Source: a virus (taxonomy: Duplodnaviria > Heunggongvirae > Uroviricota > Caudoviricetes). Taken from it: a stretch of DNA of 17,658 bases. The notes below the pieces were generated by a model. That model saw nothing but the letters and a program-made list of their open reading frames with translations. It ran no database searches and was not told the DNA's origin. Positions 1 to 16,945 of this stretch are shown here, one piece after another; positions within the stretch are counted from its first letter, which is position 1; each line of letters opens with the position of its first letter. The stretch is from positions 1 through 17,658 of the IMG/VR virus record IMGVR_UViG_2671180727_000013, one strand, 5' to 3'. A program made the translations under genes and the position numbers.

Positions 1-46
1 CTGCCCGTTGACGGACTTCAGGGGAAAAACGAGTATTTTTAGTCAT
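1..46 (-). CDS. IS3-family transposase OrfA, N-terminal 15 codons only (runs off window)
   Basis: ATG at 46..44 preceded by AAGAGG Shine-Dalgarno; translation MTKNTRFSPEVRQRA; frame open to window edge. Confidence 0.55.
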   Translation of the reverse strand, partial: MTKNTRFSPEVRQRA

Positions 47-100
47 CCTGTTTACCTCTTTCTCAGGAAGTTTAGTCTCCAGGATTCCCGGGGCGGTTCA
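1..100 (-). mobile_element. IS3-family insertion sequence, terminal ~100 bp (element continues beyond window start)
   Basis: Minus strand from position 100 reads TGAACCGCCCCGGGAATCCTGGAGACTAAACTTCCTGAGAAAGAGGTAAACAGG then ATG at 46..44. It starts with TG as IS3-family ends do. The ORF it opens (MTKNTRFSPEVRQRA...) matches my recollection of IS629/IS1203-like OrfA N-termini. Not verified by search. Confidence 0.6.
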
Positions 101-563
101 GTATGACCGTTTCTGCTTTGAACTCCGGTACACCAACGAACTCTTTAACCTTCATCTGGTAGCCGGTTCTGTCAGTTTTGATGACTTCCTGTTTGCCCTC
201 TATAAACTGCTCGCGCCACTCATCTCGACGGGAAGCTGGCATGATCAGCAAAACGTTAGTCATGTCCGTGACCTTCCTCCAGTACTCGGCCCAAATATTC
301 TGTTTCACCCATTCCAGATCGACTTTATCCAACCAACCTCGATTTAAACGCGAGCGATCTTCATCTGGTCGATGGTTTAGTCTCAGCAGGCGATTAATCA
401 TGTTGTGGCGTTCGTCGCCATAAACGAAGTCGTGAACCTGATACATGAAGGCGATCTCTTTCTCGCACTCGGCCACAATTTCGTGGATGACGTTCATTTC
501 CTGCCGATAGTCGATAGCAGTGTTTGAGTTGGCATCGTCGATGATGGAAAGGGCTGTATTCAT
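72..563 (-). CDS. hypothetical protein; last ~9 codons (LNRPGNPGD) are read from the IS terminus, so the native 3' end is probably disrupted or replaced
   Basis: 163-aa ORF; ATG at 563 with GGTG 6 nt upstream; IS boundary at 100/101 lies inside the reading frame. Confidence 0.5.
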   Translation of the reverse strand: MNTALSIIDDANSNTAIDYRQEMNVIHEIVAECEKEIAFMYQVHDFVYGDERHNMINRLLRLNHRPDEDRSRLNRGWLDKVDLEWVKQNIWAEYWRKVTDMTNVLLIMPASRRDEWREQFIEGKQEVIKTDRTGYQMKVKEFVGVPEFKAETVILNRPGNPGD

Positions 564-603
564 AATTGCACCATTAAGAAGTGATTTGTTTAATGGTGCA
601 ATT
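564..603. repeat. perfect 14-bp inverted repeat (AATTGCACCATTAA / TTAATGGTGCAATT) with 12-bp spacer, abutting the start codon at 563
   Basis: Read directly: 564..577 is the reverse complement of 590..603. On the minus-strand mRNA the 3' arm covers the GGTG ribosome-binding site. Confidence 0.7.
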
Positions 604-666
604 ATTTCAAAAATGAAAAGGTACTAAATAGAAATAAACAGGCAATCCTTCAAATAAAGGCATTGG

Positions 667-1281
667 CTAATCATACTTGGAGGTATTTATCACCAGAATT
701 TTGTTTGTATAAATCTTCTTAATATCCCATGTGACATTACCGGAATACCATTGACCGTTATATACTTGGTTTCCAGTTGCACCTGTCATTGTTACATAGA
801 CAGGTCTGTCGTAATCGGTTCGTCTATAGTTATATACTCCAACCATAGCAGGCATTACCGCACATGGATACCCCATATCTATTGTAAATTGAGGGTCAGA
901 AATAGTGATAAGTTTCGCATCAAGGGGCATCATCTCACCGTGATACACCATTGCGCCTGCGCTGTTATACATGGCAATGCCATAGCCAGAATGTGGTAAC
1001 ACCATATCAGAAAAAGCATAAACTGTTATTGTTCCGGGGCTACCATTTACCTGATGCAATCTGAGAGCATTGTATCCGTTACTATGCTCATGAATAAACA
1101 TCATGTTCGCCTTATTACTGCTTTTTATGAAAAAAAAACATGATTTGTTTGATGGGATTGATGTTTGAAAAACAGAACCTTTAGATGTAGACATTGTCCC
1201 TTTATTAATCAGATTTTGCGGAGTAAATTCTGGACTCATCCACAAACTTCCATCTGATTGAGTAATTGACATCCCGAACAT
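667..1281 (-). CDS. hypothetical protein, Tyr/Asn/Gly/Thr-rich, encoded in visibly AT-rich DNA
   Basis: ORF 667..1338 trimmed to the ATG at 1281 (MFGMSIT...), which sits 2 nt after the TAA of the upstream gene with TGGGGA as SD. Contains a T9 run (plus 1130..1138) encoding FFF. Confidence 0.5.
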   Translation of the reverse strand: MFGMSITQSDGSLWMSPEFTPQNLINKGTMSTSKGSVFQTSIPSNKSCFFFIKSSNKANMMFIHEHSNGYNALRLHQVNGSPGTITVYAFSDMVLPHSGYGIAMYNSAGAMVYHGEMMPLDAKLITISDPQFTIDMGYPCAVMPAMVGVYNYRRTDYDRPVYVTMTGATGNQVYNGQWYSGNVTWDIKKIYTNKILVINTSKYD

Positions 1282-1283
1282 AA

Positions 1284-1565
1284 TTATCCCCAGTATGTGT
1301 ATATGTAAGAACCAAGCCCCGTATATAAATTTGACCAACTAACCGTATTTCCATTAATAGTAACTGTTGGAACAGGTAAATTAATGTAGTTGTCGTTGTT
1401 AAGAGGCATCAATGACCACACGGCATGTAGCGATTTACCCGGTGGCGGATTGGAGTACGTCTTAGAGCCTGATGACGCAGTAAATCGATCAAGAAAAAAA
1501 ATAGGAGTAAGGAAGCCAGTAACGTTAATTCCTTTATTGTTGTAAATCCCTGTACCGTATGCCAT
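1284..1565 (-). CDS. hypothetical small protein (93 aa), Tyr/Asn/Gly/Thr-rich
   Basis: ATG at 1565 with AAGGA SD 6 nt upstream; TAA at 1284; contains a T8 run (plus 1494..1501). Confidence 0.5.
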   Translation of the reverse strand: MAYGTGIYNNKGINVTGFLTPIFFLDRFTASSGSKTYSNPPPGKSLHAVWSLMPLNNDNYINLPVPTVTINGNTVSWSNLYTGLGSYIYTYWG

Positions 1566-1592
1566 TTTTCATCCTTGTTTTTTATCAACACA

Positions 1593-1616
1593 ATATGGCC
1601 GATCATGCGGCCATAT
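1593..1616 (-). other. intergenic stem-loop (9-bp stem ATATGGCCG/CGGCCATAT, 6-nt loop) between the 189-aa and 93-aa genes
   Basis: Inverted repeat read directly; no clear U-tract after it on the minus strand, so a processing or attenuation role is as likely as termination. Confidence 0.3.
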
Positions 1617-1620
1617 CAGA

Positions 1621-2190
1621 TCAATTAGAGCTTTGAAAGGCTTTGTGTGGCTGTGTTGCGAGGTTATGTCGATGGCTTAACTCACGCATCATGTCTTCAA
1701 GCCGACTCTTTGTGTCGTCGAGTTGGTCGGCCATTGCTCCCAAAAGCTGACGAACGGCCATCGGATCATCGCTGTTTAGTGATGGCATTTTATAACCCGC
1801 CTGAGAAGACATAAGATTGAACGCAGACATCAACATCGTTAGAGAGGATTTAAGCCCAGCAATTTCACGATCTTTGCTGGCAATAATCGCCTCACTCTTG
1901 TTAGTGTCATCAGTTCGTTGAGTCTCGCTCACCATATCCAAAGTCGCCTGCAACTTATCAGCGCGCTCTTTTTCAGCAAGATAATGAACACCGAAATGAT
2001 GTGCTAAAGCTACAACCTGAGTTGGCTCTTCAAAGGTGGACTCAAAATTAAGTGCTGTAACCACTCTCTCAAATATGGAAACGTCTTCTATTCCTCGAAG
2101 AATGGCTAACATTTTGACCAGTTCATTAGCATCCATTTCTTCGAATAAGGCGTTTTGTTCATCAGCTATCGCTTTGCATTTCTTGCACAT
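1621..2190 (-). CDS. hypothetical protein (189 aa), begins MCKKCK
   Basis: ATG at 2190 preceded by the conserved leader AGGAAAAACAC and the upstream cassette; no family recognised. Confidence 0.55.
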   Translation of the reverse strand: MCKKCKAIADEQNALFEEMDANELVKMLAILRGIEDVSIFERVVTALNFESTFEEPTQVVALAHHFGVHYLAEKERADKLQATLDMVSETQRTDDTNKSEAIIASKDREIAGLKSSLTMLMSAFNLMSSQAGYKMPSLNSDDPMAVRQLLGAMADQLDDTKSRLEDMMRELSHRHNLATQPHKAFQSSN

Positions 2191-2204
2191 GTGTTTTTCC
2201 TAAT

Positions 2205-2227
2205 GCTTAAACAAGTTGTTTTCTTAT
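2205..2227 (-). promoter_or_regulatory. conserved upstream cassette, copy 1 (minus strand ATAAGAAAACAACTTGTTTAAGC), 14 nt upstream of the 2190 start
   Basis: One of three near-identical 23-nt elements with palindromic core AAACAAcTTGTTT, each followed by the leader AGGAAA(A/G)(A)CAC ATG. Confidence 0.5.
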
Positions 2228-2294
2228 TGGCTTTATTGTGATGTGGCATAAAAGGGGAGCAAGCTAAACGTAAAGGTGCAAACTCTCTATTTCG

Positions 2295-2327
2295 GTCAAC
2301 GAAACACAAGGGCCATTTGGCCCTTGT
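2295..2327 (-). terminator. putative intrinsic terminator after the 52-aa gene
   Basis: 9-bp stem ACAAGGGCC/GGCCCTTGT with 4-nt loop (2306..2327), followed on the minus strand by GTTTCGTTG. Confidence 0.45.
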
Positions 2328-2329
2328 CA

Positions 2330-2488
2330 TTAACACGTTGCTTTACGGACTAGCGGATAAGCGAAGTAGATCGCCAGACCAATGAGGACGCCATCAGAAA
2401 TGACAGACATCATCTTTCCCGTAAAATCCACCAACACCGCCATCACCAGAAGAGCAATGACGATCACAAGCCGGAATCTCTCAAGCAT
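2330..2488 (-). CDS. small hydrophobic protein (52 aa; MLERFRLVIVIALLVMAVLVDFTGKMMSVISDGVLIGLAIYFAYPLVRKATC), predicted membrane protein
   Basis: Not in the ORF track (below 60 aa). ATG overlaps the TerB-like stop as TAATG; two hydrophobic segments; terminator hairpin directly downstream. Confidence 0.45.
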   Translation of the reverse strand: MLERFRLVIVIALLVMAVLVDFTGKMMSVISDGVLIGLAIYFAYPLVRKATC

Positions 2489-2913
2489 TAGAGATAAGCA
2501 TCCAGTGACAACTGAAGCGCCTGGGCGATCTTTTTAAGTGCCTGCTCTTCTTGTTCACCAATGCCGTCCTGATCGGCAATATCAAGGCACAGACACAGTA
2601 CATCTACTGCATCATTAGTCCCGGCCACATCAGCCAGCTCACGTAAAGCCTGGGCATTAGCGCGGCGCGGTGAGGCTTCGTATTGAGCACGAATATTGGC
2701 GCTCATTTGGGCAATCTCACCAGCAAACGGAGAAAACGCAGGCAGAGCTGCAATTGTTTTCTCAAGAATGGAAATTTCCTTTGCGTCGCATGTGCCATCG
2801 GCATAGGAGATCATGTACGCGCCCCACACGGTGGCTTCAACCGCATCTCGGTTCTCCATTTTTTTGACCTCGATAACAGCTTTACGAGTTTTCTTTTTGA
2901 ATAAACCTAACAT
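2488..2913 (-). CDS. TerB-like protein (tellurite-resistance TerB fold)
   Basis: 141 aa; ADG...E and LCLCLDIADQDGIGEQEEQALKKIAQAL segments resemble the two TerB repeats; ATG preceded by the conserved leader AAAGGAAAGCAC. Confidence 0.5.
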   Translation of the reverse strand: MLGLFKKKTRKAVIEVKKMENRDAVEATVWGAYMISYADGTCDAKEISILEKTIAALPAFSPFAGEIAQMSANIRAQYEASPRRANAQALRELADVAGTNDAVDVLCLCLDIADQDGIGEQEEQALKKIAQALQLSLDAYL

Positions 2914-2933
2914 GTGCTTTCCTTTTGTTATTT

Positions 2934-2956
2934 GTTAAAACAAGTTGTTTTCTAGT
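2934..2956 (-). promoter_or_regulatory. conserved upstream cassette, copy 2 (minus strand ACTAGAAAACAACTTGTTTTAAC), 20 nt upstream of the 2913 start
   Basis: Same 23-nt element as at 2205..2227 and 13155..13177; perfect 7-nt palindrome arms AAAACAA/TTGTTTT. Confidence 0.5.
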
Positions 2957-2965
2957 TACATGAAT

Positions 2966-3008
2966 TGCTTACGAAAAGACGGTCAATGCATATGCACTAA
3001 CAACCGTC
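2966..3008 (-). terminator. putative terminator-like hairpin after the 62-aa membrane protein gene
   Basis: GACGGT / ACCGTC stem enclosing the palindrome TGCATATGCA, followed on the minus strand by TTTTCG; short stem and long loop, so weak. Confidence 0.35.
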
Positions 3009-3195
3009 AGAAATAACCAAGTACCGAACCAACTGGAAAAACAAAAATCCCAACAACACGAGCCAAGGTCATACCAGCCTGAAACTGGAGATCGCCAGAG
3101 CAAACAAGTTTTATAATGTTCGATACCCAACCGGCGGCCATGAGGGCAAGAATTGCCAGCCAAATTTTTCCAAAGTGATTTGAAAACCAGTTCAT
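3007..3195 (-). CDS. small membrane protein (62 aa, two hydrophobic segments)
   Basis: ATG overlaps the upstream TGA as ATGA (translational coupling); AAGGCGG SD; hydrophobic sequence WLAILALMAAGW ... VVGIFVFPVGSVLGYF. Confidence 0.5.
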   Translation of the reverse strand: MNWFSNHFGKIWLAILALMAAGWVSNIIKLVCSGDLQFQAGMTLARVVGIFVFPVGSVLGYF

Positions 3196-3410
3196 ACAAC
3201 CGCCTTAGTCACAGCATGATCCTGAGTAACTGGATGAACTTGAGGTATCGCATCCACCGTCATCCCATCCAGAGTGACAGGACGCTCTACTGGAGTGGTG
3301 GTAATTGTCGTCGACGGAGGTGTGGTGATGGATGAACCCGGCATCAAAAGGCTCTGGCCGGCTGGAACGGCTATCGTCGCCAGTGAAACTATAATGAGAA
3401 CGTAGGCCAT
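3192..3410 (-). CDS. small secreted Thr/Pro-rich protein with N-terminal signal peptide (72 aa from the ATG at 3410)
   Basis: MAYVLIIVSLATIAVPAGQS looks like a type I signal peptide with an AxA-like site; AGAGG SD upstream; no lipobox Cys. Confidence 0.45.
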   Translation of the reverse strand: MAYVLIIVSLATIAVPAGQSLLMPGSSITTPPSTTITTTPVERPVTLDGMTVDAIPQVHPVTQDHAVTKAVV

Positions 3411-3699
3411 TGGTTTCAGCCTCTTTCTTTGAAAATTTTCCATTCGAACTGTCCTTGTTGTTTTTCTCCTTCACTAAAGGCCGTGTACTTTTCGCTTCGC
3501 GTGAAGAACCAGAGGTAACAATCGCCCCCACGTTCGCAACAACTGACGCTTGCTTATCTAAACGTTCATTCAGCAACCGAACGGCAGTCTCTAGTTCATC
3601 AAGACGTGACAGAACACGACCGCTAAATAATTCGGCCAAAATTTGACGTAGTGAACGAGGACGTTTAGTTGCAGAAGTGAAATAGGTTTGACGTGCCAT
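3205..3699 (-). CDS. hypothetical protein; N-terminal ~90 aa credible, C-terminal low-complexity part overlaps 3192..3410 in another frame and may be spurious
   Basis: ATG at 3699 with GGAG SD 5 nt upstream; 3' end uncertain. Confidence 0.4.
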   Translation of the reverse strand: MARQTYFTSATKRPRSLRQILAELFSGRVLSRLDELETAVRLLNERLDKQASVVANVGAIVTSGSSREAKSTRPLVKEKNNKDSSNGKFSKKEAETNGLRSHYSFTGDDSRSSRPEPFDAGFIHHHTSVDDNYHHSSRASCHSGWDDGGCDTSSSSSYSGSCCD

Positions 3700-3714
3700 G
3701 TGGACTCCATCCAG

Positions 3715-3750
3715 TGTCAGAAAGAGTTGCGGCTGGCGATTGCCAGCCGC
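3715..3750 (-). terminator. putative terminator-like hairpin downstream of the RNase H gene
   Basis: 9-bp GC-rich stem GCGGCTGGC/GCCAGCCGC with 4-nt loop (3729..3750), followed on the minus strand by AACTCTTTCTG. Confidence 0.4.
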
Positions 3751-3844
3751 CTTTCTCGTTCCATCCTGGAACTGTGTCTTACCGACACATTGTCATCCTG
3801 ACGCCGATAAGATACATGATTTAAAATGATAGGTAAACACTTAC

Positions 3845-4438
3845 TTACTGTTTGTTGTAAACAAAACCAATATCTTTCTTGTGAGGCATATCTGCTGCGG
3901 AAAAAGCTGCGATCTTCGCGAGTCGATCACATATTTCATTTTCACGATGCCCGGCGTGACCTTTAACCCACTTCCAGCGAACATTATGTCGACTTGCAGC
4001 CTCATCCAGACGCTTCCACAGATCAACATTCTTTACCGGTTTTTTGTCAGAAGTCACCCATCCATTGCGTTTCCACCATTTCATCCACTGTGTCATGCCG
4101 TTTTTCAGATACTGGCTATCAGAGTGCAAAATAACGTTGCATGGATATTTCAAACGCTCCAGCCCGATAAGTGCCCCCATCATCTCCATGCGGTTATTGG
4201 TGGTGCTATGAAAACCATCTGAGAACTCGCGTTCCTCACCACGATACTGGAGAACTATACCGTAACCGCCCGGGCCACCCGGATTTTTAAGGCAAGAGCC
4301 ATCACTGAAGATTTTCACGGTTTTAAGCTGGGGATTGAACTCTACGACAGGCGTTGTGGAATTGGTGCGGGGAGAATTTTTGTTTTTGGCTTTTTTGCGA
4401 GTTTTTTCTTGCGATCGGGCTGGTGTCTTCGTCGTCAT
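3845..4438 (-). CDS. rnhA: ribonuclease HI-like protein with a ~40-aa basic N-terminal extension
   Basis: [57 protein letters not shown] match E. coli RNase HI motifs. Start set at the ATG at 4438 (MTTKTP) because AGGAG lies 5 nt upstream; the track's longer ORF start has no SD. Confidence 0.85.
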
Positions 4439-4439
4439 A

Positions 4440-5021
4440 TAAACTCCTGAATCAAGCGCCGCGCCGATTTTTTCCTCGCGCGTGCGCACACGCGTGCGTG
4501 TTAATAATTATTAAAATAAACAAATTACTTCCCAGAACAGGTTTTTATAAACCTGAACTGAACGAACGAAGTGAGTGAAGTTCACCTCGAACGAAGTGAG
4601 AGGTTGTCTTTTCAGGTAATACTCTCCCAGGGAGGTGAGTATAAAAATCCCTCACCAACCTGGTCGTTTCATAACCTGAAAAGTTATGGCCTAAGTCTAC
4701 TGCCAGCTTAGACTTGGGAAGTTATGGATGACAGCACCCCAGAACCGAGATCTTCCCACACTTTATGAAGGGGAGTACTGGATTCAACCTCTCTAAACAC
4801 CCCAGACTCGACAATCATAAAGTGACCCTTGTCTCCGCTCACTTTGGTTCCCCCTTCCCCGACACCTAAACGGCACCGGTTCTACGCTGGTAGTGAGCTT
4901 TTTTAAACCTGACGCCAGTGACGCTTACCCCCACCCATCAGGTCGAGTCTCCAGTCTACGACTGGAAACTATCAGATCTTAGCACTTACAATTCACTTTA
5001 TGAATAGTTTGTACTTATCTA
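4440..5021 (-). other. ORF-poor, repeat-rich structured intergenic region (candidate ncRNA, regulatory hub or origin)
   Basis: No ORF of 60 aa or more on either strand; 12-nt direct repeat GAACGAAGTGAG at 4564..4575 and 4589..4600; several hairpins and long-range inverted repeats (details in findings). Confidence 0.4.
4477..4500. repeat. 24-nt perfectly alternating pyrimidine-purine GC-rich tract (Z-DNA-prone), with embedded palindromes
   Basis: CGCGCGTGCGCACACGCGTGCGTG read directly; includes CGCGTG-CGCA-CACGCG hairpin; followed by 14-bp AT palindrome TTAATAATTATTAA at 4501..4514. Confidence 0.6.
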
Positions 5022-5252
5022 TCATTGTGATTGATTATTTTCTCTACCATGTAGTTGAACATTCAAGGCAAACACCTCATTGATCAACTCACCTAAAAGC
5101 TGTTCAACAAGTTCGCGATGCTCGCCAAGATGCAAGCACTTAATTGCCCATTCGTACAAGTTGAAAGCCTGCTCACGATCTTTCATCATTTCACGAGCCT
5201 GGGCCAGAAAATCGCTCTCTACGAGCGCAACGACATTAGTCGGGTATGACAT
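5022..5252 (-). CDS. hypothetical small protein (76 aa from the ATG at 5252)
   Basis: Track ORF 5022..5276 trimmed to the internal ATG that has AAGGA 7 nt upstream; the first ATG lacks an SD. Confidence 0.45.
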   Translation of the reverse strand: MSYPTNVVALVESDFLAQAREMMKDREQAFNLYEWAIKCLHLGEHRELVEQLLGELINEVFALNVQLHGRENNQSQ

Positions 5253-5340
5253 GTTGGTTTCCTTAAAGTGGTTCATAAAATCGATTTTAAAGCGTCTGGG
5301 AAGGGGTTCTAGTGGATTCTGTAGTGATGTTCAGGTCTGG

Positions 5341-5416
5341 AGTCTCTGATACAAAACAGCCTGCTTCCGTATATTAATAATTAATATGTAGTTATTTATA
5401 TATACAGAAGCAGGCT
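5341..5416 (-). terminator. terminator-like long hairpin after the methyltransferase gene
   Basis: Arms 5358..5374 and 5400..5416 pair over 17 positions with one mismatch; 25-nt AT-rich loop containing ATTAATAATTAAT; minus-strand tail GTTTTGTAT. Confidence 0.35.
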
Positions 5417-5437
5417 AATTACAGACGCCAGAACAAA

Positions 5438-6031
5438 CTAAGCAGCCTTCTTTGATGGTCTTTTTTTCCTGATCACATTCGCAGGATCATACCCTCCCAG
5501 ACTTTTCATGACGTCCAAAGGGATCTTGCTTATAGAGTGCCCAGCGTCCTGACAAAATCCTCGAAAAACAACGAGCATACTGCCACCTGGGTTGATGTTT
5601 ACTTCTACCTGACCCAGATTGACGTCAGGCTCGACAAACGCTACGCGGCCACCAGACAGAATAATCGTCTCATTCGCACACTCTGTTGCACGCTCATACC
5701 ACTTTGTATCTAGGGATTGAGGAATTAGCATCACTGTTGTAACTCCGCGAGCCTGCTCACGTATAGCCGCATCAATCCAGGGGGAGATTTTGGAGTAGGG
5801 TGGATTGAGGAAGGCAATTGTACCTGGCTGTCCCCATTCAGATTTCAAAGCATCACGCTCAACGCCTATGAAATTAGGCAGCTTTGCATTGTCCTTGTTG
5901 CAGGCAACGTCAACATCAAATGTCACTCCAAGATAACGTTGAATGGCAGAAAACAGCCAGTCAGGTGTTCTCCAGAGGTCACGAAGAGAGTTGTCGCGCT
6001 TTCGCTGTTTGATTTTTTCGGCTGCAATCAT
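5438..6031 (-). CDS. phage Dam-family DNA N6-adenine methyltransferase
   Basis: N-terminal WRTPDWLF...FDVDVAC and catalytic NPPYS (motif IV) in the order typical of the phage Dam family (PF05869-like); 197 aa; no adjacent restriction-endonuclease gene seen. Confidence 0.75.
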   Translation of the reverse strand: MIAAEKIKQRKRDNSLRDLWRTPDWLFSAIQRYLGVTFDVDVACNKDNAKLPNFIGVERDALKSEWGQPGTIAFLNPPYSKISPWIDAAIREQARGVTTVMLIPQSLDTKWYERATECANETIILSGGRVAFVEPDVNLGQVEVNINPGGSMLVVFRGFCQDAGHSISKIPLDVMKSLGGYDPANVIRKKRPSKKAA

Positions 6032-6090
6032 CTTCTTTCTCGATAGGTAAGTAAATACCTATTTTTGCATTTGATTTTATGTCTGGCAAT

Positions 6091-6139
6091 CAAATAAAAC
6101 GCGCCAGAAATGCAAACGAGAAGCTCTCTGGCGCGTTTT
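6091..6139 (-). terminator. intrinsic terminator after the acidic-protein gene
   Basis: Stem AAAACGCGCCAGA / TCTGGCGCGTTTT (6097..6139), flanked by A/T runs so it has a U-tail in both orientations; minus-strand tail GTTTTATTTG. Confidence 0.6.
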
Positions 6140-6143
6140 TGTG

Positions 6144-6174
6144 GTGCTGGGTATGTGATTGGCTTACCCAGCAC
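6144..6174. other. second tandem hairpin (10-bp perfect stem GTGCTGGGTA/TACCCAGCAC, 11-nt loop)
   Basis: Read directly; no U-tract, function unknown. Confidence 0.4.
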
Positions 6175-6214
6175 TATAAAGCTCTCTATGGGCTTTATTT
6201 TCAGTAGGGGAACG

Positions 6215-7024
6215 TCATCCAATAGTGTACTCCGCGACAAACTTCTTAACGATCGGTGATTCTTCGTTCAATGTTAGATTTCCACCGCCTCTAACGGCAA
6301 TTCCTGTCGCTGGAAATACAGCCATCATTTGCCCAGCCTGAGTTGACGCAGTGTTAAGCGGATACGGTTTTTCTGGATTGCTCATTAAAGCAATCTTAAT
6401 ACTATTACTTGTAGCCTTCTTTTCTGTGAGAAGGTGTCTCATGGAAATTACCGTGTAAACACTAATATCTGGACCTCCGCTAAACCAATTAAGAAGGTTT
6501 AATATCTTATCCTTTGCTTTGACAGGCGCGTTATCGTAAGCGTCTAAGAAAATATCTTTTTCTAAGCCCGCTTTATTGAAAAACGAATCATCTTTATCAC
6601 TTAAAGTAAAACGAGGACCTCTTGCAGTACGAGCTTTTTTATTTGTATTGCTATCATTTGACTGTTGAACTTTTAATTCATCATTAACCTCAACACACTC
6701 TTCAACCTCAATAAATCCCAATTGTTCTGGCTCGTTTTCGGCAGCTTCAACACTTTCAGCGTTAATTACGTTTATAGGCTCATGCGCTAACTCCAACTCA
6801 TTTAAAGCAGAGCTGAAATCACCTGCTTTTTCTTCATTGAACAGTTCTTCGGCAACATCATCAGAACTCATGGCTACGCCAGCATCTAGGCCGAGCAGCA
6901 GATCGTCAATATCATCAGTATTTTCAACCTGTGCAGCTTTTTTTACTGGTTCATCAAGTGATTGCAACATGGCTGTCAGCTCGTCCAGATCATCATTTGT
7001 CATTACATTTTCAACCGAACTCAT
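6215..7024 (-). CDS. hypothetical protein with strongly acidic N-terminal half (Asp/Glu-rich)
   Basis: 269 aa; AGGAG SD 8 nt upstream of the ATG; N-terminal ~120 aa dominated by D/E; no catalytic motif recognised. Confidence 0.55.
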   Translation of the reverse strand: MSSVENVMTNDDLDELTAMLQSLDEPVKKAAQVENTDDIDDLLLGLDAGVAMSSDDVAEELFNEEKAGDFSSALNELELAHEPINVINAESVEAAENEPEQLGFIEVEECVEVNDELKVQQSNDSNTNKKARTARGPRFTLSDKDDSFFNKAGLEKDIFLDAYDNAPVKAKDKILNLLNWFSGGPDISVYTVISMRHLLTEKKATSNSIKIALMSNPEKPYPLNTASTQAGQMMAVFPATGIAVRGGGNLTLNEESPIVKKFVAEYTIG

Positions 7025-7133
7025 GTAAGTCTCCTTCTGTTTGGTTACATTTGCGTTTCGATGGCTACATTTTGACTAAACCTATCAGGCGGAAAAGTAT
7101 TAAATACAGGCAGGAAATGATTGAAAGGCGACT

Positions 7134-7178
7134 GTTCTTTAAAAGAAAGCCTACTTTAAACTTTTTAAAGTAGGCTTT
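7134..7178 (-). terminator. intrinsic terminator immediately after the exonuclease gene
   Basis: ~15-bp stem (7146..7160 with 7164..7178) and 3-nt loop; T-runs on both sides (minus tail TCTTTTAAAG, plus tail TTTTGTTTT). Confidence 0.6.
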
Positions 7179-7182
7179 TGTT

Positions 7183-7740
7183 TTACACAATTTCAGAGGG
7201 TAATTTAAAAAATCCGTACTTATTACGTGCCTTAAAGAAGCATTGCATCATTAAGTTTGTGTCATATAAGGCACTATGTGCTTTGGCATGATCGTATATA
7301 AAGCCAAGAGAGAAGGCCAACTCTTCAAGGCGGGGACGTTTACCGTCTTCTGTGGCCCACAATCCCGATAACATAGTATCTATAACAGGAACTTCTGGCA
7401 GTCTTACTCCATACCCTGAAAACTCGTGTCGAATAAATGGTATATCAAATGCTTCGCCGTTATGAGCAACCCACACACTACATGCCCCCATATAAGCGCC
7501 AATTTCGCTGGCATGATTTGACAACAAAGGTTCAGCTGCGAGCTGTTCCAATGAAATGCCATGAACGGCTTGAGCTTTCGGATCTATGTTTCTGCGAGGG
7601 TTAAAACGCATCTCCAGACTATCAATATGTCTCTGTGTCTCCAGTTCATAGCGGGTAATTGCGATTTCAATAATTTTATGACCAGCAAGGAAATCCAGTC
7701 CCGTAGACTCGATATCGATGCCTGCAACAATCGTTGTCAT
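7183..7740 (-). CDS. DnaQ-like DEDDh 3'-5' exonuclease
   Basis: Exo I GIDIESTGL, Exo II HNGEAFDIPF, Exo III HSALYDT; AAGGAG SD; 185 aa. Confidence 0.8.
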   Translation of the reverse strand: MTTIVAGIDIESTGLDFLAGHKIIEIAITRYELETQRHIDSLEMRFNPRRNIDPKAQAVHGISLEQLAAEPLLSNHASEIGAYMGACSVWVAHNGEAFDIPFIRHEFSGYGVRLPEVPVIDTMLSGLWATEDGKRPRLEELAFSLGFIYDHAKAHSALYDTNLMMQCFFKARNKYGFFKLPSEIV

Positions 7741-7749
7741 CAGAACTCC

Positions 7750-8169
7750 TTACAACTTCTTAGCGCCCTTAAGTAGTGCGCTACGTACAAATTGAGCCGC
7801 TTTTTTCAAAGTTTCTTCACTGGTTTCACAGACAATCGGATCTTTCCACTTACCTGACACAGTGTTGAGAATATTGATTTGGTTGCTATCCAGACAAACA
7901 GAGATATAAAGCACCGTGCCACCAGCCAGCATCAAATGCATAGGAAACAGAGGCTTTTTACTGCCTTCACTGAACTGAGACATGGCGATGTTAATGGCTT
8001 CACCCACTTGTGTACCAACAAGCCCCTGCGCAGTTTCGAATATGGCACGAATAGCCAGACGAGCCTCTCGATCGCTCATAAGCGACCGGGAATGTTCGTC
8101 CGCTACACGAATCAAAGCCTCTGTTGTTTTCCGATCCAGTTCATCTTCAAGCAACATTTCACTAAACAT
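7750..8169 (-). CDS. hypothetical protein (139 aa)
   Basis: ATG with AAGGA SD 7 nt upstream; its stop overlaps the RBS of the exonuclease gene; no family recognised. Confidence 0.5.
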   Translation of the reverse strand: MFSEMLLEDELDRKTTEALIRVADEHSRSLMSDREARLAIRAIFETAQGLVGTQVGEAINIAMSQFSEGSKKPLFPMHLMLAGGTVLYISVCLDSNQINILNTVSGKWKDPIVCETSEETLKKAAQFVRSALLKGAKKL

Positions 8170-8230
8170 TTTTTATCCTTAACCCATTTTGAGAGTTTTA
8201 TTGTCGCAATGTCGAAGAGGCGAACAATTT

Positions 8231-8875
8231 CTAATGAACGGTCACTCGGCCACAGAACCGGTTTTCTATCTTTTCTACAGCGTTATCTAGCATTCTCATC
8301 ACTGATCTGGCTCTTGCTTCAACCGTGCGATATCGGTTGGAAACGACGAAGGTTTGCAGATCTCCCCTTTGCGGATGCAGGTGAATTTTTGTCAGTTCCC
8401 CGCACATCAACGCATCAATACGAGCGACATACAGACGGTCTAATGATGCTCGTTGTGACCGCAAGTAATCTCGCTCTGAGAGAGCGACCCCCGGGCGTAG
8501 GCCAGCAATGGCGTTAAAGTTTGAAATAGCAGTTTTGTGGCAAAACTTTTCGATATCGAGGGCTAACTCAATACACCGATCTTCATTTGTATGGCCGACC
8601 AAATCCAACGTGTAGGCCATAACATCAGCAGGTGTGCGATCGATAACAAAGCCTTCAACACCACGCGTAAGTAGCTCTATATGCTTTGCTATTTCCATTT
8701 GAATCTGAAGCCGCTCATATAGAGGCATAGAATCACCTACTCGAACACCGAGGCGGCTCATCAAACTTCCGACACCAGCATCCACGTAAGGGATTCCGTA
8801 ATGTTTGTCGATATATTTAGCCAGGGTTGTTTTCCCACTGCCCTGAGCACCAGTGATCCCAATCCGGTAATCCAT
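8231..8875 (-). CDS. P-loop nucleotide/nucleoside kinase-like protein
   Basis: Walker A GITGAQGSGKTT near the N-terminus (dephospho-CoA kinase / uridine kinase style); start overlaps the DHFR stop as TAATG; substrate not assignable. Confidence 0.5.
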   Translation of the reverse strand: MDYRIGITGAQGSGKTTLAKYIDKHYGIPYVDAGVGSLMSRLGVRVGDSMPLYERLQIQMEIAKHIELLTRGVEGFVIDRTPADVMAYTLDLVGHTNEDRCIELALDIEKFCHKTAISNFNAIAGLRPGVALSERDYLRSQRASLDRLYVARIDALMCGELTKIHLHPQRGDLQTFVVSNRYRTVEARARSVMRMLDNAVEKIENRFCGRVTVH

Positions 8876-9351
8876 TACGACCTTCTGTATACGATCTGCG
8901 AAAAGCCAGGCTCTTCCTCGCTGGCTCGTTGGGTATAAGCTGTTTCAACAGGCACAAAGCCTAAATTACGCATCATGCTTGCCGGGAAGAATGCATCGGC
9001 GTTTGGCACATCAACGCCGATGTGGGAGAGCCAAATCTCTTCAACATGCGGCATGAATAGCGAGTAAATTTGTTCCCCGCCAATCACCCACACAGGCTCT
9101 GGTAATCGCAACACATCATCCACACCAGCAGGGTAGAATCCATTTGGTACAAAGCCATGAGAGCGCGTCAAAACGAGGTTATGACGCTCTGGAAGAGGGC
9201 GTTTGAGACTTTCCATCGTTTTACGCCCCATAACGACAGTGGCGTTTTTGGTGAGTCTCTTAAATAGCTTCAGATCGGTAGAACAACGCCAGGGGAGTTC
9301 ATTCGCTATGCCGATCTCATAGTTACGGCCAACAGCAGCGATCATCTTCAT
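8875..9351 (-). CDS. folA: dihydrofolate reductase
   Basis: MKMIAAVGRNYEIGIANELPW...VVMGRKTMESL...RPLPERHNLVLTR...VWVIGGEQIY aligns with E. coli FolA motifs; 158 aa; ATGA overlap with upstream gene. Confidence 0.85.
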   Translation of the reverse strand: MKMIAAVGRNYEIGIANELPWRCSTDLKLFKRLTKNATVVMGRKTMESLKRPLPERHNLVLTRSHGFVPNGFYPAGVDDVLRLPEPVWVIGGEQIYSLFMPHVEEIWLSHIGVDVPNADAFFPASMMRNLGFVPVETAYTQRASEEEPGFSQIVYRRS

Positions 9352-9761
9352 TTGCTCACCTCATAGATGACCGGTCGATGGTGAGAGTCGGCTAAAGCGG
9401 CACGGAGTCGAGGATCGTGCACCAGCGCAGCGATAAGCAGATCGCCTTTATGCTCCGCTAATGTGCGCTTAATATGCTTCTCATAACTGGTGCCATTCGG
9501 TACGAGATGAAGCCAGTCATAATCAACGCCAAAATCTTTCAGCCATCGTTTAGTTGGCGCTTCAAGAGTTTCAGAGCGGCTACTGATAAGCACCACTTCA
9601 GCCCCTGAGCGAGCAAAACCACGCAACATACGGCTGGTGGGGAAAATGAGTTCATCACCGGCAATGAGCTGGCCTGCATCCGCGTCAGATACTGATTTAC
9701 GATGGCTGGCATTTGCCAGCACACCTTCAATTTCGCATAAGACATACATACCTCTTGCCAT
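9348..9761 (-). CDS. hypothetical protein, possibly HAD-like fold with Glu in place of the motif I Asp residues
   Basis: Start set at the ATG at 9761 (MARGMYVLCEIEGVL), 1 nt after the thymidylate synthase stop; hhhExEGvL then VVLISSRSE then K...GD pattern is reminiscent of HAD motifs I-IV. Weak. Confidence 0.3.
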   Translation of the reverse strand: MARGMYVLCEIEGVLANASHRKSVSDADAGQLIAGDELIFPTSRMLRGFARSGAEVVLISSRSETLEAPTKRWLKDFGVDYDWLHLVPNGTSYEKHIKRTLAEHKGDLLIAALVHDPRLRAALADSHHRPVIYEVSK

Positions 9762-9762
9762 A

Positions 9763-10866
9763 TCACACCGCCACTGGAACCTTGATCCACGATAGAGGGT
9801 CATAGCCAAGAATTAAAACCTCGTCCCATTTGAAATCATCCAACTCTGACCATTCATGAGGGAAAATAACGACCGGATCTGAATGCTCTGGAGCCTGTCG
9901 TTTCATTAGCTCACACACACCTTCCATGTGGTTGTTGTACAAATGCACGTCAAAGCCAAAATGCACAAATGCACCGGCCATGTGACCCGTAATCTTCGCG
10001 AGAAAATGAGTGAGAATGCCATAGCCAGCAATATTGAATGGCATACCAACAAAAGTGTCTACGCTACGCTGTACGAGGCAGGAGTTGAGGATGCGTTTGG
10101 GGATTCCAAGTTCATCCAGTTCAGCTTCAGTAACACTGCCGTCCATCTCCAGATCGTATAGCATCTTGGTGTAGATAGACTCGTAACCGAGGCGACTGTG
10201 TTGAAGACCAATGTCAGTTGCCATCGTTAAACGGGTTTCAAAATCCAGCTCACGACTCCACAAAGAGAAGACAAAGTGGCAAGGTGGCAGTTTCATATCC
10301 TCAAGCTCGCCTACGTTCCATGCGTTAAGCATGATGCGACGATCGGTAGGGTTCGTGCGCAGTGTATCGACAATACGCTGTAGCTGATCGATTTCACGGG
10401 ACAGCACTACGCGATCTTCACTGATACCCAGGTATCCCTCGACTTTGTACCCGCGTTCACGGAAAGTAGCGATCTTGCTCAGATATTCACTATGGCTCAC
10501 GATGCGGGTATCTTCCCATCGACGCCACTGCTTACCGTAAACCGGCCCCAAATCGCCATTCTCATCGGCCCATGCATCCCAAATCTTAACGCCGTTATCC
10601 TTGAGAAATTGGATGTTGCCCGTGCCTTTCAGATACCACTCAAGTTCGACAAGCAGTGGCTTAAGATTTACCGCCTTTCCAGAAATAAGCGGCACAGTCC
10701 CACCAGTAAGCATGTAGTAAGAGGGAACGTAGCAGGTGCTTAAAGTACCAGTGCCTGTGCGATCATCAGCCTGCACGCCGCTTTTAAGCACCGTCTCAAT
10801 AACTTTTGCATACGATGCGTTTGTTACCTGACCGTTCGTATGCTCACGATTCAAAAGGAGTGACAC
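9763..10866 (-). CDS. thyA: thymidylate synthase (ThyA-type) carrying two large insertions
   Basis: DRTGTGTLS, IWDAWADENGDLGPVYGKQWRRW, DRRIMLNAWN, LPPCH, QRSVDTFVGMPFNIAGY (Asn retained, so dUMP-specific), HLYNNHM. Start ambiguous: GTG at 10866 has GAGG 5 nt upstream; the track's GTG at 10893 has no SD. Confidence 0.85.
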   Translation of the reverse strand: MSLLLNREHTNGQVTNASYAKVIETVLKSGVQADDRTGTGTLSTCYVPSYYMLTGGTVPLISGKAVNLKPLLVELEWYLKGTGNIQFLKDNGVKIWDAWADENGDLGPVYGKQWRRWEDTRIVSHSEYLSKIATFRERGYKVEGYLGISEDRVVLSREIDQLQRIVDTLRTNPTDRRIMLNAWNVGELEDMKLPPCHFVFSLWSRELDFETRLTMATDIGLQHSRLGYESIYTKMLYDLEMDGSVTEAELDELGIPKRILNSCLVQRSVDTFVGMPFNIAGYGILTHFLAKITGHMAGAFVHFGFDVHLYNNHMEGVCELMKRQAPEHSDPVVIFPHEWSELDDFKWDEVLILGYDPLSWIKVPVAV

Positions 10867-10940
10867 AAAAACCTCACAAAGATAAGTAACCACTTATTCA
10901 TTGCGTGAGTTTACATTTATTGAGAGAACAAGACCAGACA

Positions 10941-10969
10941 GATAAAAAAATGGTGGCCATAGGCCACCA
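10941..10969 (-). terminator. intrinsic terminator after the 289-aa gene
   Basis: 8-bp stem TGGTGGCC/GGCCACCA with 3-nt loop, followed on the minus strand by TTTTTTTATC. Confidence 0.7.
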
Positions 10970-11037
10970 AAAACGAATAGTTGTTTCAGAAATTTAACGC
11001 GCCAACGCAATATACACAGATAGATAACTACCTACAA

Positions 11038-11907
11038 TTATTTTTTGATCATTCCGTACATTGCTGAGGCTTTAGCTTGCTCAACAAAGGAGGATAAATC
11101 GACATCACTATAGGTTGGAGACTTCAGAATCTTTCCATCGGAAATTCGAAAACCGATCATCTTATCGGTGCCATCAGCATGGCGGAATCCCAGGTCTGAA
11201 GAGTCGTATTTGCAGTTGGCCACAGCCTGGCGACGTTCCTCAACATCAGCAGGCCATAATTTTGTCATGTTAGACCGATGAATTTCGCCAACCAGCTCGA
11301 CTACATTGATACCGAGGAAATCAGCCAGTCGATAGGTCATCATGCACGCCACATAGATTTTGTTCATGACACGGCGCAGTTCCTGAATCAGCTCAGAATC
11401 CTTAACAGTCTTGTTCTCAAGTTTATCTGCCAGCTCTTCGAGCATACATGACGCCTCACGAGCTTCCTGAAATGGCATTGCCATATCATCGAAAACAGTG
11501 TTACCGGGCACAAAAATTGTCTGCATAAAGCGATCAATGCTCTGTTCCTGCGTGTAATAGGTCATGCCGGTAGAAATACCACCTTTGATGGCGACCATCG
11601 TACCAACACCAACGTATAAAAAGTCGGCCATTGCATCCAGCAGTTGCTCAATATCCCCATTCATTGCGGCTGGAATACCTTCCACTACAGCTTCTTCATG
11701 AATCAGGCTTGCACGGAGACGAAGCAGCTCTGGTGTCGGCATAACGCGTCTCGGATGCTGGAAGAGTTCATGAAACTGATCGACCATCTTGTAAATACTT
11801 TCAGTAGCTACACCATGACCTTCATGCAACTCATATGGTTCTGGCTTAAATCCAATGAGTCGATCGGTGGCAAGTTTCAGGTGGTCAGTCAGTTTGGTAA
11901 AGTTCAT
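11038..11907 (-). CDS. putative all-alpha NTP pyrophosphohydrolase (MazG / dimeric dUTPase-like), tentative
   Basis: 289 aa; two EE-x-x-E ... D-x-x-x-D/E acidic helix patterns (LIHEEAVVEG...DIEQLLDAMADFLYV; EAREASCMLEELADKLE). Assignment by motif impression only. Confidence 0.35.
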   Translation of the reverse strand: MNFTKLTDHLKLATDRLIGFKPEPYELHEGHGVATESIYKMVDQFHELFQHPRRVMPTPELLRLRASLIHEEAVVEGIPAAMNGDIEQLLDAMADFLYVGVGTMVAIKGGISTGMTYYTQEQSIDRFMQTIFVPGNTVFDDMAMPFQEAREASCMLEELADKLENKTVKDSELIQELRRVMNKIYVACMMTYRLADFLGINVVELVGEIHRSNMTKLWPADVEERRQAVANCKYDSSDLGFRHADGTDKMIGFRISDGKILKSPTYSDVDLSSFVEQAKASAMYGMIKK

Positions 11908-11942
11908 GCTAGTTTTGTTCCTTCTTAATTCTTGTGATCCAT

Positions 11943-11967
11943 TGTGGCCCAGCGTTGCCAGGCCACA
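11943..11967 (-). other. stem-loop in the nrdB to downstream-gene spacer (7-bp stem TGTGGCC/GGCCACA, 11-nt loop)
   Basis: Read directly; no U-tract, so probably not a terminator. Confidence 0.3.
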
Positions 11968-11984
11968 TAATGCTTTGTATCGGT

Positions 11985-13127
11985 TTACAGGTCAGCAAAC
12001 TGGCTTAGAGAAGCCTTATCCACGGTAGAATCGATCTGACCTACCAGATATGTGCTTTGCTCTGCCTCTTGTGGTGCAATTTGCAGTGTGTCGGTTAACA
12101 ACCACTTGTTCATCCAGACCAGCGGATCGGTGGTAACCTCTGGAAATAAAGCCTTCAGGCCAAGACGATTCATAGCCAGATTGGTGCGGTATTTTACATA
12201 GGTTTTGAGAATATCCGCGTTTAAACCAATCATCGAACCGTCTTTGAAGAGATAGTCTGCCCAGTTCATTTCTTGTTCGGCGACTGATTTCATGGTGTCG
12301 TAAATGACGTTTTCTTCATCAGCAGCAATCTCTTTCCACAATAAACCTTCGCGACCGGTACGCATGAAGCGGATCATGCGTTCAGTTCCTTCGCAATGCA
12401 GAGCTTCATCACGGGCAATAAAGCGCATAATTTTGGTGTTACCCTCAAGCAACTTCCGTTCGCCAAAGGCAAACGTACATGCAAAACTTACATAGAAACG
12501 GATCGCCTCAAGCGCATTAATGGACACCAACGTGCGGAAAAGCTGACGGTGCAAAGGGTATGGCTCCCAGCCATATTCATTTACGTACAGACGTTCAAAC
12601 TCCTTCTCACCTAACGACTGGCGCTCGCAGGTCATCCCATAAAGCCTGTCATATTCAGCAGAGATACTGATCGCTCGGTTGATGATTTCTTCATCCGTAA
12701 CAATACCGTCAAAAACAATGCTCGGATCGTCCACCATGCCACGAATAATGTGGGTGTAGCTGCGGCTATGGATAGTCTCAGAGAAAGACCACGTTTCAAC
12801 CCACGTTTCCAGTTCAGGAATAGAGATAAGCGGCAGCAGCGTTGCATTTGGACTACGTCCCTGAACTGAATCGAGTAACGTTTGATAACGGAGATTGCTC
12901 AGAAAAATGTGACGTTCGTGGTCCCGCAGCTTCGTGTTGAAGTCGATACGATCGCTCGAAATATCAACTTCTTCCGGCCGCCAGAAGAAAGACAATTGAC
13001 GTTCAATCAACTTTTCAAAATCACGGTATTTTTGCTGATCGTAACGTGCCACGTTGACAGATTGTCCGAGGAACATAGGCTCTTTGGTTGCATCATTAGC
13101 ACCCAAACGGAACGTTGAATATGACAT
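11985..13127 (-). CDS. nrdB: ribonucleotide reductase class Ia small (beta) subunit
   Basis: 380 aa; long stretches near-identical to E. coli NrdB as I recall it ([90 protein letters not shown]). Uninterrupted, no intron. Confidence 0.95.
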
Positions 13128-13154
13128 GTGTTTTTCCTTTTTCTTTTTTGGTGC

Positions 13155-13177
13155 GTTTAAACAAGTTGTTATCTTAT
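13155..13177 (-). promoter_or_regulatory. conserved upstream cassette, copy 3 (minus strand ATAAGATAACAACTTGTTTAAAC), 27 nt upstream of the nrdB start, plus a partial extra TTGTTTAAAC copy at 13180..13189
   Basis: Third copy of the 23-nt element; lies between the nrdA terminator and the nrdB RBS, followed by the leader AAGGAAAAACAC ATG. Confidence 0.5.
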
Positions 13178-13195
13178 GTGTTTAAACAAGGCTTA

Positions 13196-13228
13196 CAAAT
13201 CAAAGAGAAGGTGGGGATATCCCCCACC
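13196..13228 (-). terminator. intrinsic terminator immediately after nrdA
   Basis: GC-rich hairpin GGTGGGG-ATATC-CCCACC (13210..13228) followed on the minus strand by TTCTCTTTGATTTG. Confidence 0.6.
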
Positions 13229-13233
13229 ATATG

Positions 13234-15549: not shown

Positions 15550-15552
15550 GTA

Positions 15553-15588
15553 TCACCAAATAAAGAGGGCCACTATATTTAGTGGCCC
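15553..15588 (-). terminator. intrinsic terminator between the RuvC-like gene and nrdA
   Basis: 9-bp stem GGGCCACTA/TAGTGGCCC with 4-nt loop (15567..15588), followed on the minus strand by TCTTTATTTGG. Confidence 0.6.
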
Positions 15589-15613
15589 ATGTTAATAGAT
15601 AAGCACTTACCTA

Positions 15614-16192: not shown

Positions 16193-16201
16193 ATAGTCTC
16201 C

Positions 16202-16934: not shown

Positions 16935-16945
<11 letters not shown>
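16202..16945 (-). CDS. hypothetical protein (247 aa), translationally coupled between the ATPase lobe and the RuvC-like gene
   Basis: ATG at 16945 lies 11 nt inside the upstream ORF; no motif of a known nuclease or phosphoesterase family recognised. Confidence 0.5.

Follow-up and report, generated by a model that had tools for sequence, protein, structure and literature searches.

A TerB-family gene and a DUF3927 gene form the SSU5-type phage-plasmid version of the P1 tciA-tciB cassette

Introduction

Among the DNA-metabolism genes of a tailed phage, a gene for a TerB-like protein is joined to a gene for a hydrophobic protein of only 52 aa, raising the question of what such a pair does. As shown below, the two genes are homologues of tciA and tciB of phage P1, and the question becomes what this very widespread cassette, carried by phages from P1 to N4-like and jumbo types, does. 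TerB domains have recently been found in several anti-phage systems, so the two-gene phage version makes a conveniently minimal setting in which to study the action of TerB at the membrane. We analyzed the pair in its sequence context; "the window" denotes the whole stretch of DNA that was studied (17,658 nucleotides; IMG/VR record IMGVR_UViG_2671180727_000013), to which all coordinates refer.

The pair is already known: both genes have names, both families are in Pfam and PHROGs, and near-identical records carry annotations, as "P1 TciA-like" and "P1 TciB-like" in the record of Escherichia phage Cyrano and as TerB family and DUF3927 in RefSeq. A preliminary description of this DNA had supposed that default annotation would miss the 52-aa gene, a concern that proved unfounded, with RefSeq/PGAP calling its product "DUF3927 family protein". 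In a phage-plasmid study, a figure of resistance-gene insertion loci also shows "DUF3927 family" and "tellurite/colicin resistance" for the pSLy3-type element (bioRxiv 10.1101/2022.06.24.497495). We found no experiments on TciA or TciB in the searchable literature.

Results

Host element and gene content

Bases 101-17537 of the window matched Escherichia phages CMS-2020a and Cyrano at 98.6-98.8% identity and Salmonella phage SSU5, with its relatives from Klebsiella, at ~77%, while identity to IncFIB E. coli plasmids of ~110 kb reached 99.4-99.5%. Judged by these identities, the window is part of an SSU5-like E. coli phage-plasmid. All of its genes lie on the minus strand and comprise nrdA, nrdB, a mazG-like gene, thyX, pnk, dhfr, exonuclease, dam and RNase H genes, then several small genes. 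The neighbors of tciA-tciB are small ORFs, including a 62-aa ORF that is hydrophobic by eye, and RNase H. An Rfam scan of the window and an NCBIfam search gave no matches. The features of the unit are listed in Table 1.

Table 1 Features of the tciA-tciB unit and copies of its upstream palindrome in the window
Feature	Position	Strand	Remarks
tciA	2488..2913	minus	ATG start; 141 aa; TerB family; predicted to be all-helical and cytoplasmic
Shine-Dalgarno-like AAGGAAA of tciA	2918..2924	minus	read from sequence
tciB	2330..2488	minus	ATG start; 52 aa; DUF3927; hydrophobic helices at about residues 5-20 and 27-47
Intrinsic-terminator-like hairpin	2296..2327	minus	directly past the tciB stop; stem 2306-2327, then GTTTCGTT
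Palindrome AAAACAACTTGTTTT, 15 bp, perfect, operator-like	2937..2951		24 nt upstream of the tciA ATG
Palindromic motif, copy 2	2208..2222		upstream of the next gene (189 aa, 1621..2190)
Palindromic motif, copy 3, one mismatch	13159..13172		upstream of nrdB

TciA is a TerB-family protein

The assignment of the 141-aa product as TerB-like was borne out by profile searches. TciA scored 32.4 bits against Pfam TerB (PF05099), above the gathering cut-off of 24.4, with residues 33-136 matching profile positions 9-109 of 118, and it matched phrog_632, "tellurite resistance", from end to end with 212 bits. P1 TciA is 83% identical to the window protein over its full length. A profile built from 14 phage TciA sequences found the Klebsiella TerB structure (PDB 2JXU_A) with an E-value of 4.6e-19, aligning profile positions 10-138 with residues 16-145; a single-sequence phmmer search with the window TciA, which is too diverged, did not find 2JXU. 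Two acidic DG-x5-E motifs are present in TciA (D39 G40..E46 and D116 G117..E122), and both align to their counterparts in 2JXU, SDG..EE and SDG..DE. In the alignment of phage TciA proteins, D39, G40, E46 and E122 are either invariant or conserved. An AlphaFold2 model (pLDDT 89.1, pTM 0.86) predicted six helices arranged in a TerB-like fold. The tciA product is a full-length, helical TerB-family protein.

An alternative reading of the acidic motifs as EF-hands was rejected: matches to centrin/caltractin had E-values of 0.08-1, which are not significant, and are explained by the DxDG-like character of these motifs. TciA has no segment long enough to span a membrane (maximal 19-residue hydropathy 1.08), and its basic-hydrophobic N-terminus, MLGLFKKKTRK, is a feature of the family.

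The homology of TciA to the TerB of tellurite-resistance clusters suggests one possible function, in which the unit acts by lysogenic conversion and raises the tolerance of the host that carries the plasmid to tellurite, oxidative or metal stress, a role proposed in reviews for P1-like tciABC (PMC11652158). However, TerB is the only Ter family among the window genes, with terZ, terA, terC, terD and terE all absent, whereas the smallest tellurite construct in PMC11003894 is terBCDEF (pLK18). The authors of the PMBT3 study also argued, for a lone phage terB, that other tellurite-resistance genes are required for activity. Further evidence on this reading comes from the distribution of the pair, described below.

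TciB is a small DUF3927 protein

Both ORFs and the TAATG overlap that joins them are present as originally described, the stop codon of tciA (TAA, 2490-2488) sharing one A with the start codon of tciB (ATG, 2488-2486). No ribosome-binding site comparable to that of tciA was seen at tciB, which is probably translated by coupling through the overlap.

TciB scored 48.3 bits against Pfam DUF3927 (PF13064; cut-off 25) and 76 bits against phrog_1470, "TciB-like". The protein is strongly hydrophobic (GRAVY 1.42), and its hydropathy profile has two maxima, predicting two hydrophobic helices in agreement with the small membrane protein proposed earlier. Each hydrophobic stretch carries an Arg or Lys at its outer end, and by the positive-inside rule both termini would be cytoplasmic. 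Across 49 family members, R6, D21, F22, T23, S28, D32, G33 and P45 are invariant, and conservation extends to the loop/interface motif VDFTGKMMSVISDG and to (W/Y)P. The family motif, VDFT..S..DG..(W)P, is present in the window TciB and persists at the protein level in homologues with only 25-40% identity, and the sites that vary among close tciB alleles number 22, 11 and 31 at codon positions 1, 2 and 3. This persistence and codon-position bias mark tciB as a real gene, conserved in related elements; tciA and tciB are both genuine genes rather than chance ORFs.

The DUF3927 family is small, forming 159 clusters at 50% identity in a profile search of 1.84 billion representatives, and its members are essentially always stand-alone proteins of ~50-60 aa. 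The DUF3927 profile had no match among solved structures. In a model of P0089, a P1-type read-through, the TciB part was predicted to form two helices connected by a six-residue loop. P0089 itself was dismissed as a fusion, being a frameshifted tciA-tciB read-through with a single Logan member, and its model held no usable information on a TciA-TciB interface. The other long hits (P0262, P0318, P0322 and P0299) are chimeric or frameshifted assemblies. The apparent TerB-DUF3927 fusions are thus assembly artefacts and lend no Rosetta-stone support to a contact between TciA and TciB.

The unit has its own terminator and a backbone-type upstream palindrome

The preliminary description had regarded the two genes as a self-contained operon with its own terminator and its own copy of an upstream cassette. 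The terminator was confirmed: a terminator scan found the hairpin ACAAGGGCC-AAAT-GGCCCTTGT, with a 9-bp stem containing 6 G-C pairs and the loop AAAT, and the 46-nt stretch around it folded at -21.6 kcal/mol (z = -5.2), a stability equalled by 0 of 200 shuffles. A G+C-rich hairpin also follows tciB (or tciC) in most other phage contexts, its sequence differing by lineage. An ORF at 2166..2336 was considered as an equivalent of tciC and rejected, its product being basic rather than hydrophobic and its reading frame running through the hairpin.

The upstream cassette stood only in part. A palindrome is indeed present 24 nt before tciA, but it is a motif of the SSU5-type backbone. Its 14-nt core is present three times in the window, where shuffles predict 0.34 copies and none of 200 reached the observed number, and the three upstream regions (of tciA, the next gene and nrdB) align well past this core; the ending AAAGGAAA(A/G)CACATG of the tciA upstream region recurs upstream of nrdB. 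The copy at 2208..2222 marks the start of the next transcription unit. With at most one mismatch allowed, the palindrome AAACAAnTTGTTT was located at 18 positions in the complete 108-kb genome of Cyrano, whereas shuffles gave ~0.5. Every one of these copies is intergenic; for most, a start codon follows within a few tens of nucleotides, and many have a -10-like hexamer (GATAAT or TAATTA, for example) 9-12 nt upstream. The genes that bear them include terS, parA, a helicase gene, nrdB, tciA, the gene that follows tciB and a series of small genes at 93-98 kb. The motif keeps its position at -24 to -27 from tciA in both the E. coli and the Klebsiella SSU5-like lineages despite diverged flanks, and it does not precede tciA in any context outside the SSU5 type (P1-like, lambdoid, N4-like and others). 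Given the ~18 Cyrano copies and this absence elsewhere, the palindrome belongs to the SSU5-type backbone rather than to the gene pair.

We infer that the palindrome AAAACAAnTTGTTTT is a putative site for a dimeric regulator of the SSU5-type element, located at or just after the transcription start. No sigma-70 consensus promoter was called upstream of tciA, where a TTGACC hexamer lies at 2981-2986; therefore, the palindrome could be an activator site or a shared mRNA 5' end instead of a repressor operator. A backbone regulator that binds it would probably set the expression of tciAB, and the pair would be co-regulated through it with genes of replication, nucleotide metabolism and partition.

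The pair is tightly linked across diverse phages

A set of 101 loci was assembled by looking for TciA homologues in phage records, viral contigs and genomes. A TciB homologue lies directly downstream in 98 of the 101, a count that overstates independence as many of the loci are closely related; in these 98 it is on the same strand and ends 149-183 nt past the TciA stop. In the converse search, started from DUF3927, every inspected context had a TerB gene directly upstream. Carriers include the phage-plasmids P1, P7 and D6, SSU5-like elements of E. coli and Klebsiella, lambdoid phages and prophages, N4-like Salmonella phages, an Erwinia jumbo phage, and Pantoea and Pseudomonas phages. The three exceptions to the linkage still have a candidate membrane partner: Vibrio phage MS02 carries TerC (141 bits) directly upstream of TerB, and in Pseudomonas phages AF and Ebordelon a different small ORF with an N-terminal hydrophobic stretch lies downstream, annotated "membrane protein" in Ebordelon. 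It thus seems that a phage TerB is invariably accompanied by a membrane protein, which fits the interaction of TerB with TerC (Turkovicova 2016, as cited in PMC11003894) and the membrane association of TerB (Alekhina 2011, as cited in bioRxiv 10.1101/2022.05.11.491447) that have been reported.

The preliminary description had called the pairing unexpected inside a DNA-metabolism array. On the contrary, it is a widespread cassette homologous to P1 tciA-tciB, and several phages have it near genes of nucleotide metabolism or replication: dUTPase in N4-like phages, dCTP deaminase in Ebordelon, thyX in PMBT3 and the ban helicase gene in P1. Flanking tRNA genes were also observed in P1, P7, D6, lambdoid phages, ChrisDB and phiK7B1. 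We asked whether this reflects a functional connection of tciAB with tRNA genes and rejected the idea, there being no tRNA gene in the window and the Asn-Thr-Ser tRNA genes of Cyrano lying 41 kb from tciA-tciB; we read the association as shared moron/tRNA slots and co-transfer.

The complete unit, from operator to terminator, was found in 215 of 5,426 complete E. coli genomes (~4%), almost always on plasmids of ~105-117 kb, and both genes carry PGAP annotations in these genomes. This carriage on a plasmid-prophage is in keeping with a benefit to the host such as the stress tolerance considered above. Yet the pair is present in strictly virulent phages as well as temperate ones, and therefore a benefit to the lysogen cannot be the whole story. 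The P1 pair lies in the C1-repressed ban operon and is expected to be off in lysogens, and the window pair shares its motif with replication genes. Together with the missing Ter partners, these points make plain tellurite or stress resistance unlikely.

The pair is an accessory module

Both families are placed by PHROGs in the category "moron, auxiliary metabolic gene and host takeover". As expected of a moron, the pair has its own terminator and is variably present among relatives; the region that holds it is variable among P1-like elements (PMC9603915), and in Klebsiella lambdoid prophages it occupies a classic moron slot between the Q antiterminator and holin genes. CRISPRi knock-down of tciA, tciB and tciC in P1 leaves plating unimpaired (PMC10695390), and the P1 genes are dispensable for lytic growth.

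The moron slot and the dispensability bear on two further proposals. TciB could be a two-helix protein resembling a class-II holin or an antiholin, with TciA as its cytoplasmic regulator, the pair acting as a lysis-timing device; its location just upstream of the holin gene in the Klebsiella prophages would suit this. However, those prophages encode a holin-endolysin-spanin set of their own at another location, as does the SSU5-type backbone, the pair is remote from the lysis genes in most phages, and P1 does not need it, so that we consider a role in lysis timing highly improbable.

Alternatively, the pair may block cell division or envelope growth in host takeover (the "i" in tci), much as the small division inhibitors of prophages do. 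Its P1 counterpart is annotated with "inhibition of cell division (by homology)", one preprint places tciA/B/C in a group with icd and kilA, and a small membrane protein in an early-gene context would suit takeover. Nevertheless, the assignment comes from homology only, the genes are dispensable in P1, and their stable maintenance on plasmids in ~4% of complete E. coli genomes means that the unit cannot be strongly toxic at its natural level of expression. On balance, a division inhibitor is improbable.

TciA alleles are exchanged against a nearly unchanged TciB

Relative to Cyrano, no gene of the window has diverged more than tciA, which shows 90.4% nucleotide identity (41 mismatches in 426 nt) compared with 98.6% overall. 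The spacer upstream of tciA is 91.4% identical and tciB 98.7%. Larger contrasts were seen elsewhere: between P1 and P7 the TciA proteins are 31% identical and the TciB proteins 83%, and between SP-076 and SP-058 the values are 31% and 96%. TciA alleles are thus exchanged against a nearly unchanged TciB.

Quick turnover of TciA alleles with TciB kept is a pattern known from conflict loci, and it would suit the main rival explanation, a counter-defense decoy. Here a phage TerB tethered to the membrane by TciB would mimic or titrate host TerB-domain "membrane surveillance" components (Shango, Bunzi, Dionysus and the phage-inhibiting function of ter clusters), letting infection pass unnoticed. TerB domains occur in validated anti-phage systems and have been proposed to act there in membrane surveillance, as monitors of the membrane (bioRxiv 10.1101/2022.05.11.491447; bioRxiv 10.1101/2025.09.30.679545). 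The pair is found in virulent and temperate phages within early or replication modules, and D6-like elements carry a Tad2-like gene (Pfam PF11195) ~700 nt downstream of it. Against a decoy, TciA and TciB had no match to the PADLOC 2.0 models at E <= 0.01; at E <= 1, six of 14 family members matched the candidate model PDC-S48 weakly (best E 6e-4), the window protein not among them, and so the latter has no PADLOC-detectable similarity to the TerB of defense systems. The allele differences in tciA, moreover, mostly look like synonymous-type recombination (41 nt against 11 aa relative to Cyrano), and positive selection is not evident. We regard a decoy as rather unlikely.

A broader and more speculative reading, to which we also give low credence though somewhat more than to the decoy, is that TciA-TciB may be a minimal phage TerB "membrane surveillance" module in conflict, serving either as a decoy against TerB defenses or in superinfection exclusion, with TciA as a fast-swapping specificity component and TciB as a constant anchor.

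Discussion

The gene identities, the strict linkage, the compact architecture of the unit, the dispensability in P1 and the allele turnover are observations, and the function that we propose for the pair is reached by analogy with TerB and TerC. In our best explanation, to which we assign a probability of about one half, TciA would be held at the inner membrane by TciB in the way that TerB is held by TerC, and the pair would form an accessory membrane-protection or exclusion module under the control of the phage-plasmid backbone. TciB would form a helical hairpin in the inner membrane, its two ends facing the cytoplasm, and would act as the membrane partner that recruits or regulates a cytoplasmic, amphitropic TciA. 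The resulting complex would act at the inner membrane while the phage develops or the plasmid is carried, providing a dispensable accessory function. Likely roles are the protection or conditioning of the membrane, or the exclusion of incoming phage (DNA) or of pore-forming colicins; protection and phage or colicin exclusion are phenotypes historically tied to ter clusters containing TerB (PMC9603915; PMC8123226). The absence from the window of terC, terD and terE, which are required for ter-operon phenotypes, counts against this explanation. A membrane-directed accessory role, which the preliminary description had put forward, appears the most reasonable reading of the sequence, in line with the PHROGs category of both families.

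Comparison with ter clusters supports the relationship of TciA and sets the partner apart. The TerB of terZABCDE(F) clusters, such as that of Klebsiella pneumoniae (2JXU), belongs to the same Pfam family as TciA, spans the same length and shares its helical fold. In both cases a cytoplasmic TerB may be held at the membrane by an integral-membrane partner; in ter clusters this is the multi-pass TerC, whereas in the window it would be a hairpin of 52 aa. Vibrio phage MS02, which pairs TerB with TerC in place of DUF3927, carries the ter-type partner in a phage setting.

The TerB-containing defense systems Shango (SngA), Bunzi (BnzA) and Dionysus (DinB, with the membrane protein DinA and the pore-former DinC) resemble the window in placing a TerB-domain protein beside membrane proteins. 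However, their partners include a helicase, a nuclease or a pore-forming effector, none of which accompanies TerB in the window, and they reside in host defense islands, whereas the tciAB pair is encoded by phages, virulent ones included. The pair is neither a ter operon nor a known defense system.

The closest known system is P1 tciA-tciB. Both share the gene order, a stop/start overlap of one or four bases and a TciB of DUF3927/phrog_1470, and in both the unit consists of non-structural accessory genes adjoining replication genes. The two TciB proteins are only 38% identical. P1 additionally encodes TciC, a hydrophobic peptide of 35 aa with a single helix, whereas in the window the terminator follows tciB directly, and P1 has flanking tRNA genes (Asn and Thr before, Ile after) that the window lacks. 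The P1 pair is embedded in the C1-controlled ban operon, while the window pair lies between an SSU5-type palindrome and a terminator of its own. In sum, the locus is the P1 tciA-tciB cassette in its SSU5-type phage-plasmid form, without tciC.

Borders of the backbone segment and allele exchange in tciA

The SSU5-like backbone is left at both ends of the window (1-100 and 17538-17658), where the sequence instead matches DNA of thousands of plasmids and of Stx and other phages. These matches adjoin transposase genes, one of them naming the IS3-like element IS1203, and the 17.4-kb backbone segment therefore appears to have been cut by insertion sequences. The apparent cuts lie within a DUF4942 gene at one end and within an SbcC-like ATPase gene at the other.

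Comparison with the near-identical SSU5-like phage Cyrano (L001) showed that divergence within the window is locally concentrated in tciA (2488-2913) and its upstream spacer. Identity was 90.4% for tciA and 91.4% for the spacer, against 98.7% for tciB and 98.6% overall. Across phages (P1/P7; SP-076/SP-058), TciA alleles are exchanged and TciB is nearly constant.

The neighbours of tciAB in the window are a series of small function-unknown genes; Pfam returned nothing for the three ORFs listed in the table. In D6-like phage-plasmids, a Tad2-like gene lies about 700 nt 3' of tciAB-tciC, past a tRNA-Met gene.

Features in and around tciAB (L-numbers, other phage, prophage or plasmid loci compared with the window)
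Feature	Location	Strand	Remark
Palindrome AAAACAAnTTGTTTT	window 2937-2951, 2208-2222, 13159-13172		motif copies in window
ORF, 62 aa	window 3007-3195	-	just upstream of tciAB; phrog_6006; hydrophobic by eye
ORF	window 1284-1565	-	"outer membrane protein" in related-phage annotation
ORF	window 667-1338	-	"membrane associated protein" in related-phage annotation
tciA leader	L121:1375-1503, L122:1400-1503, L130:3470-3581, L050-L082		conserved, upstream of tciA
STnc100 (RF02076)	L121:2159-2331, L130:4211-4399, L057:3867-4070, L052:3633-3798		Rfam match
tRNA genes beside tciAB	L002, L118, L119, L121, L122, L123, L135, L050-L080		Asn, Thr-UGU, Arg-UCU, Ile/Met-CAU, others
Tad2-like gene (PF11195)	L135:4881-5456		D6-like element

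RNA elements associated with tciAB

Outside the window, a conserved leader of about 95 nt precedes tciA in lambdoid prophages and phages and in the Erwinia jumbo phage ChrisDB; Rfam gave no match for it. In the consensus fold, CCUUU..GGGGUGAGCC pairs with GGCUCACCC..AAAGG, a pairing that sequesters the Shine-Dalgarno sequence. Among nine sequences, a small and closely related sample, 94% of cells were paired, compared with 38-49% when the partners were slid, and 14 pairs were changed on both sides, compared with 3.4 in shuffles. The leader may be a hitherto undescribed translational riboregulator of tciAB.

In lambdoid contexts, the sRNA STnc100 lies directly 3' of tciB, with scores of 74-107 bits where the gathering score is 47; the window has no copy of it. 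tRNA genes flank tciAB in P1, P7, D6-like, lambdoid, jumbo and Pseudomonas phages, probably reflecting co-residence in moron/tRNA slots. The window carries no tRNA genes, and Cyrano keeps Asn-Thr-Ser tRNA genes 41 kb from tciAB.

A palindromic motif across SSU5-like genomes

The palindrome AAAACAAnTTGTTTT is an intergenic motif found genome-wide in SSU5-like phage-plasmids (the whole Cyrano genome, L138-L140), with 18 copies in the 108 kb of Cyrano against about 0.5 expected. Most Cyrano copies are followed within a few tens of nucleotides by a start codon, including those of terS, parA, the helicase gene, nrdB, tciA and numerous small genes. A hexamer resembling a -10 element precedes many of the copies by 9-12 nt. 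Together the copies look like the operator set of a putative master regulator, and their arrangement resembles that of the operators of the C1 repressor, which are scattered over the P1 genome.
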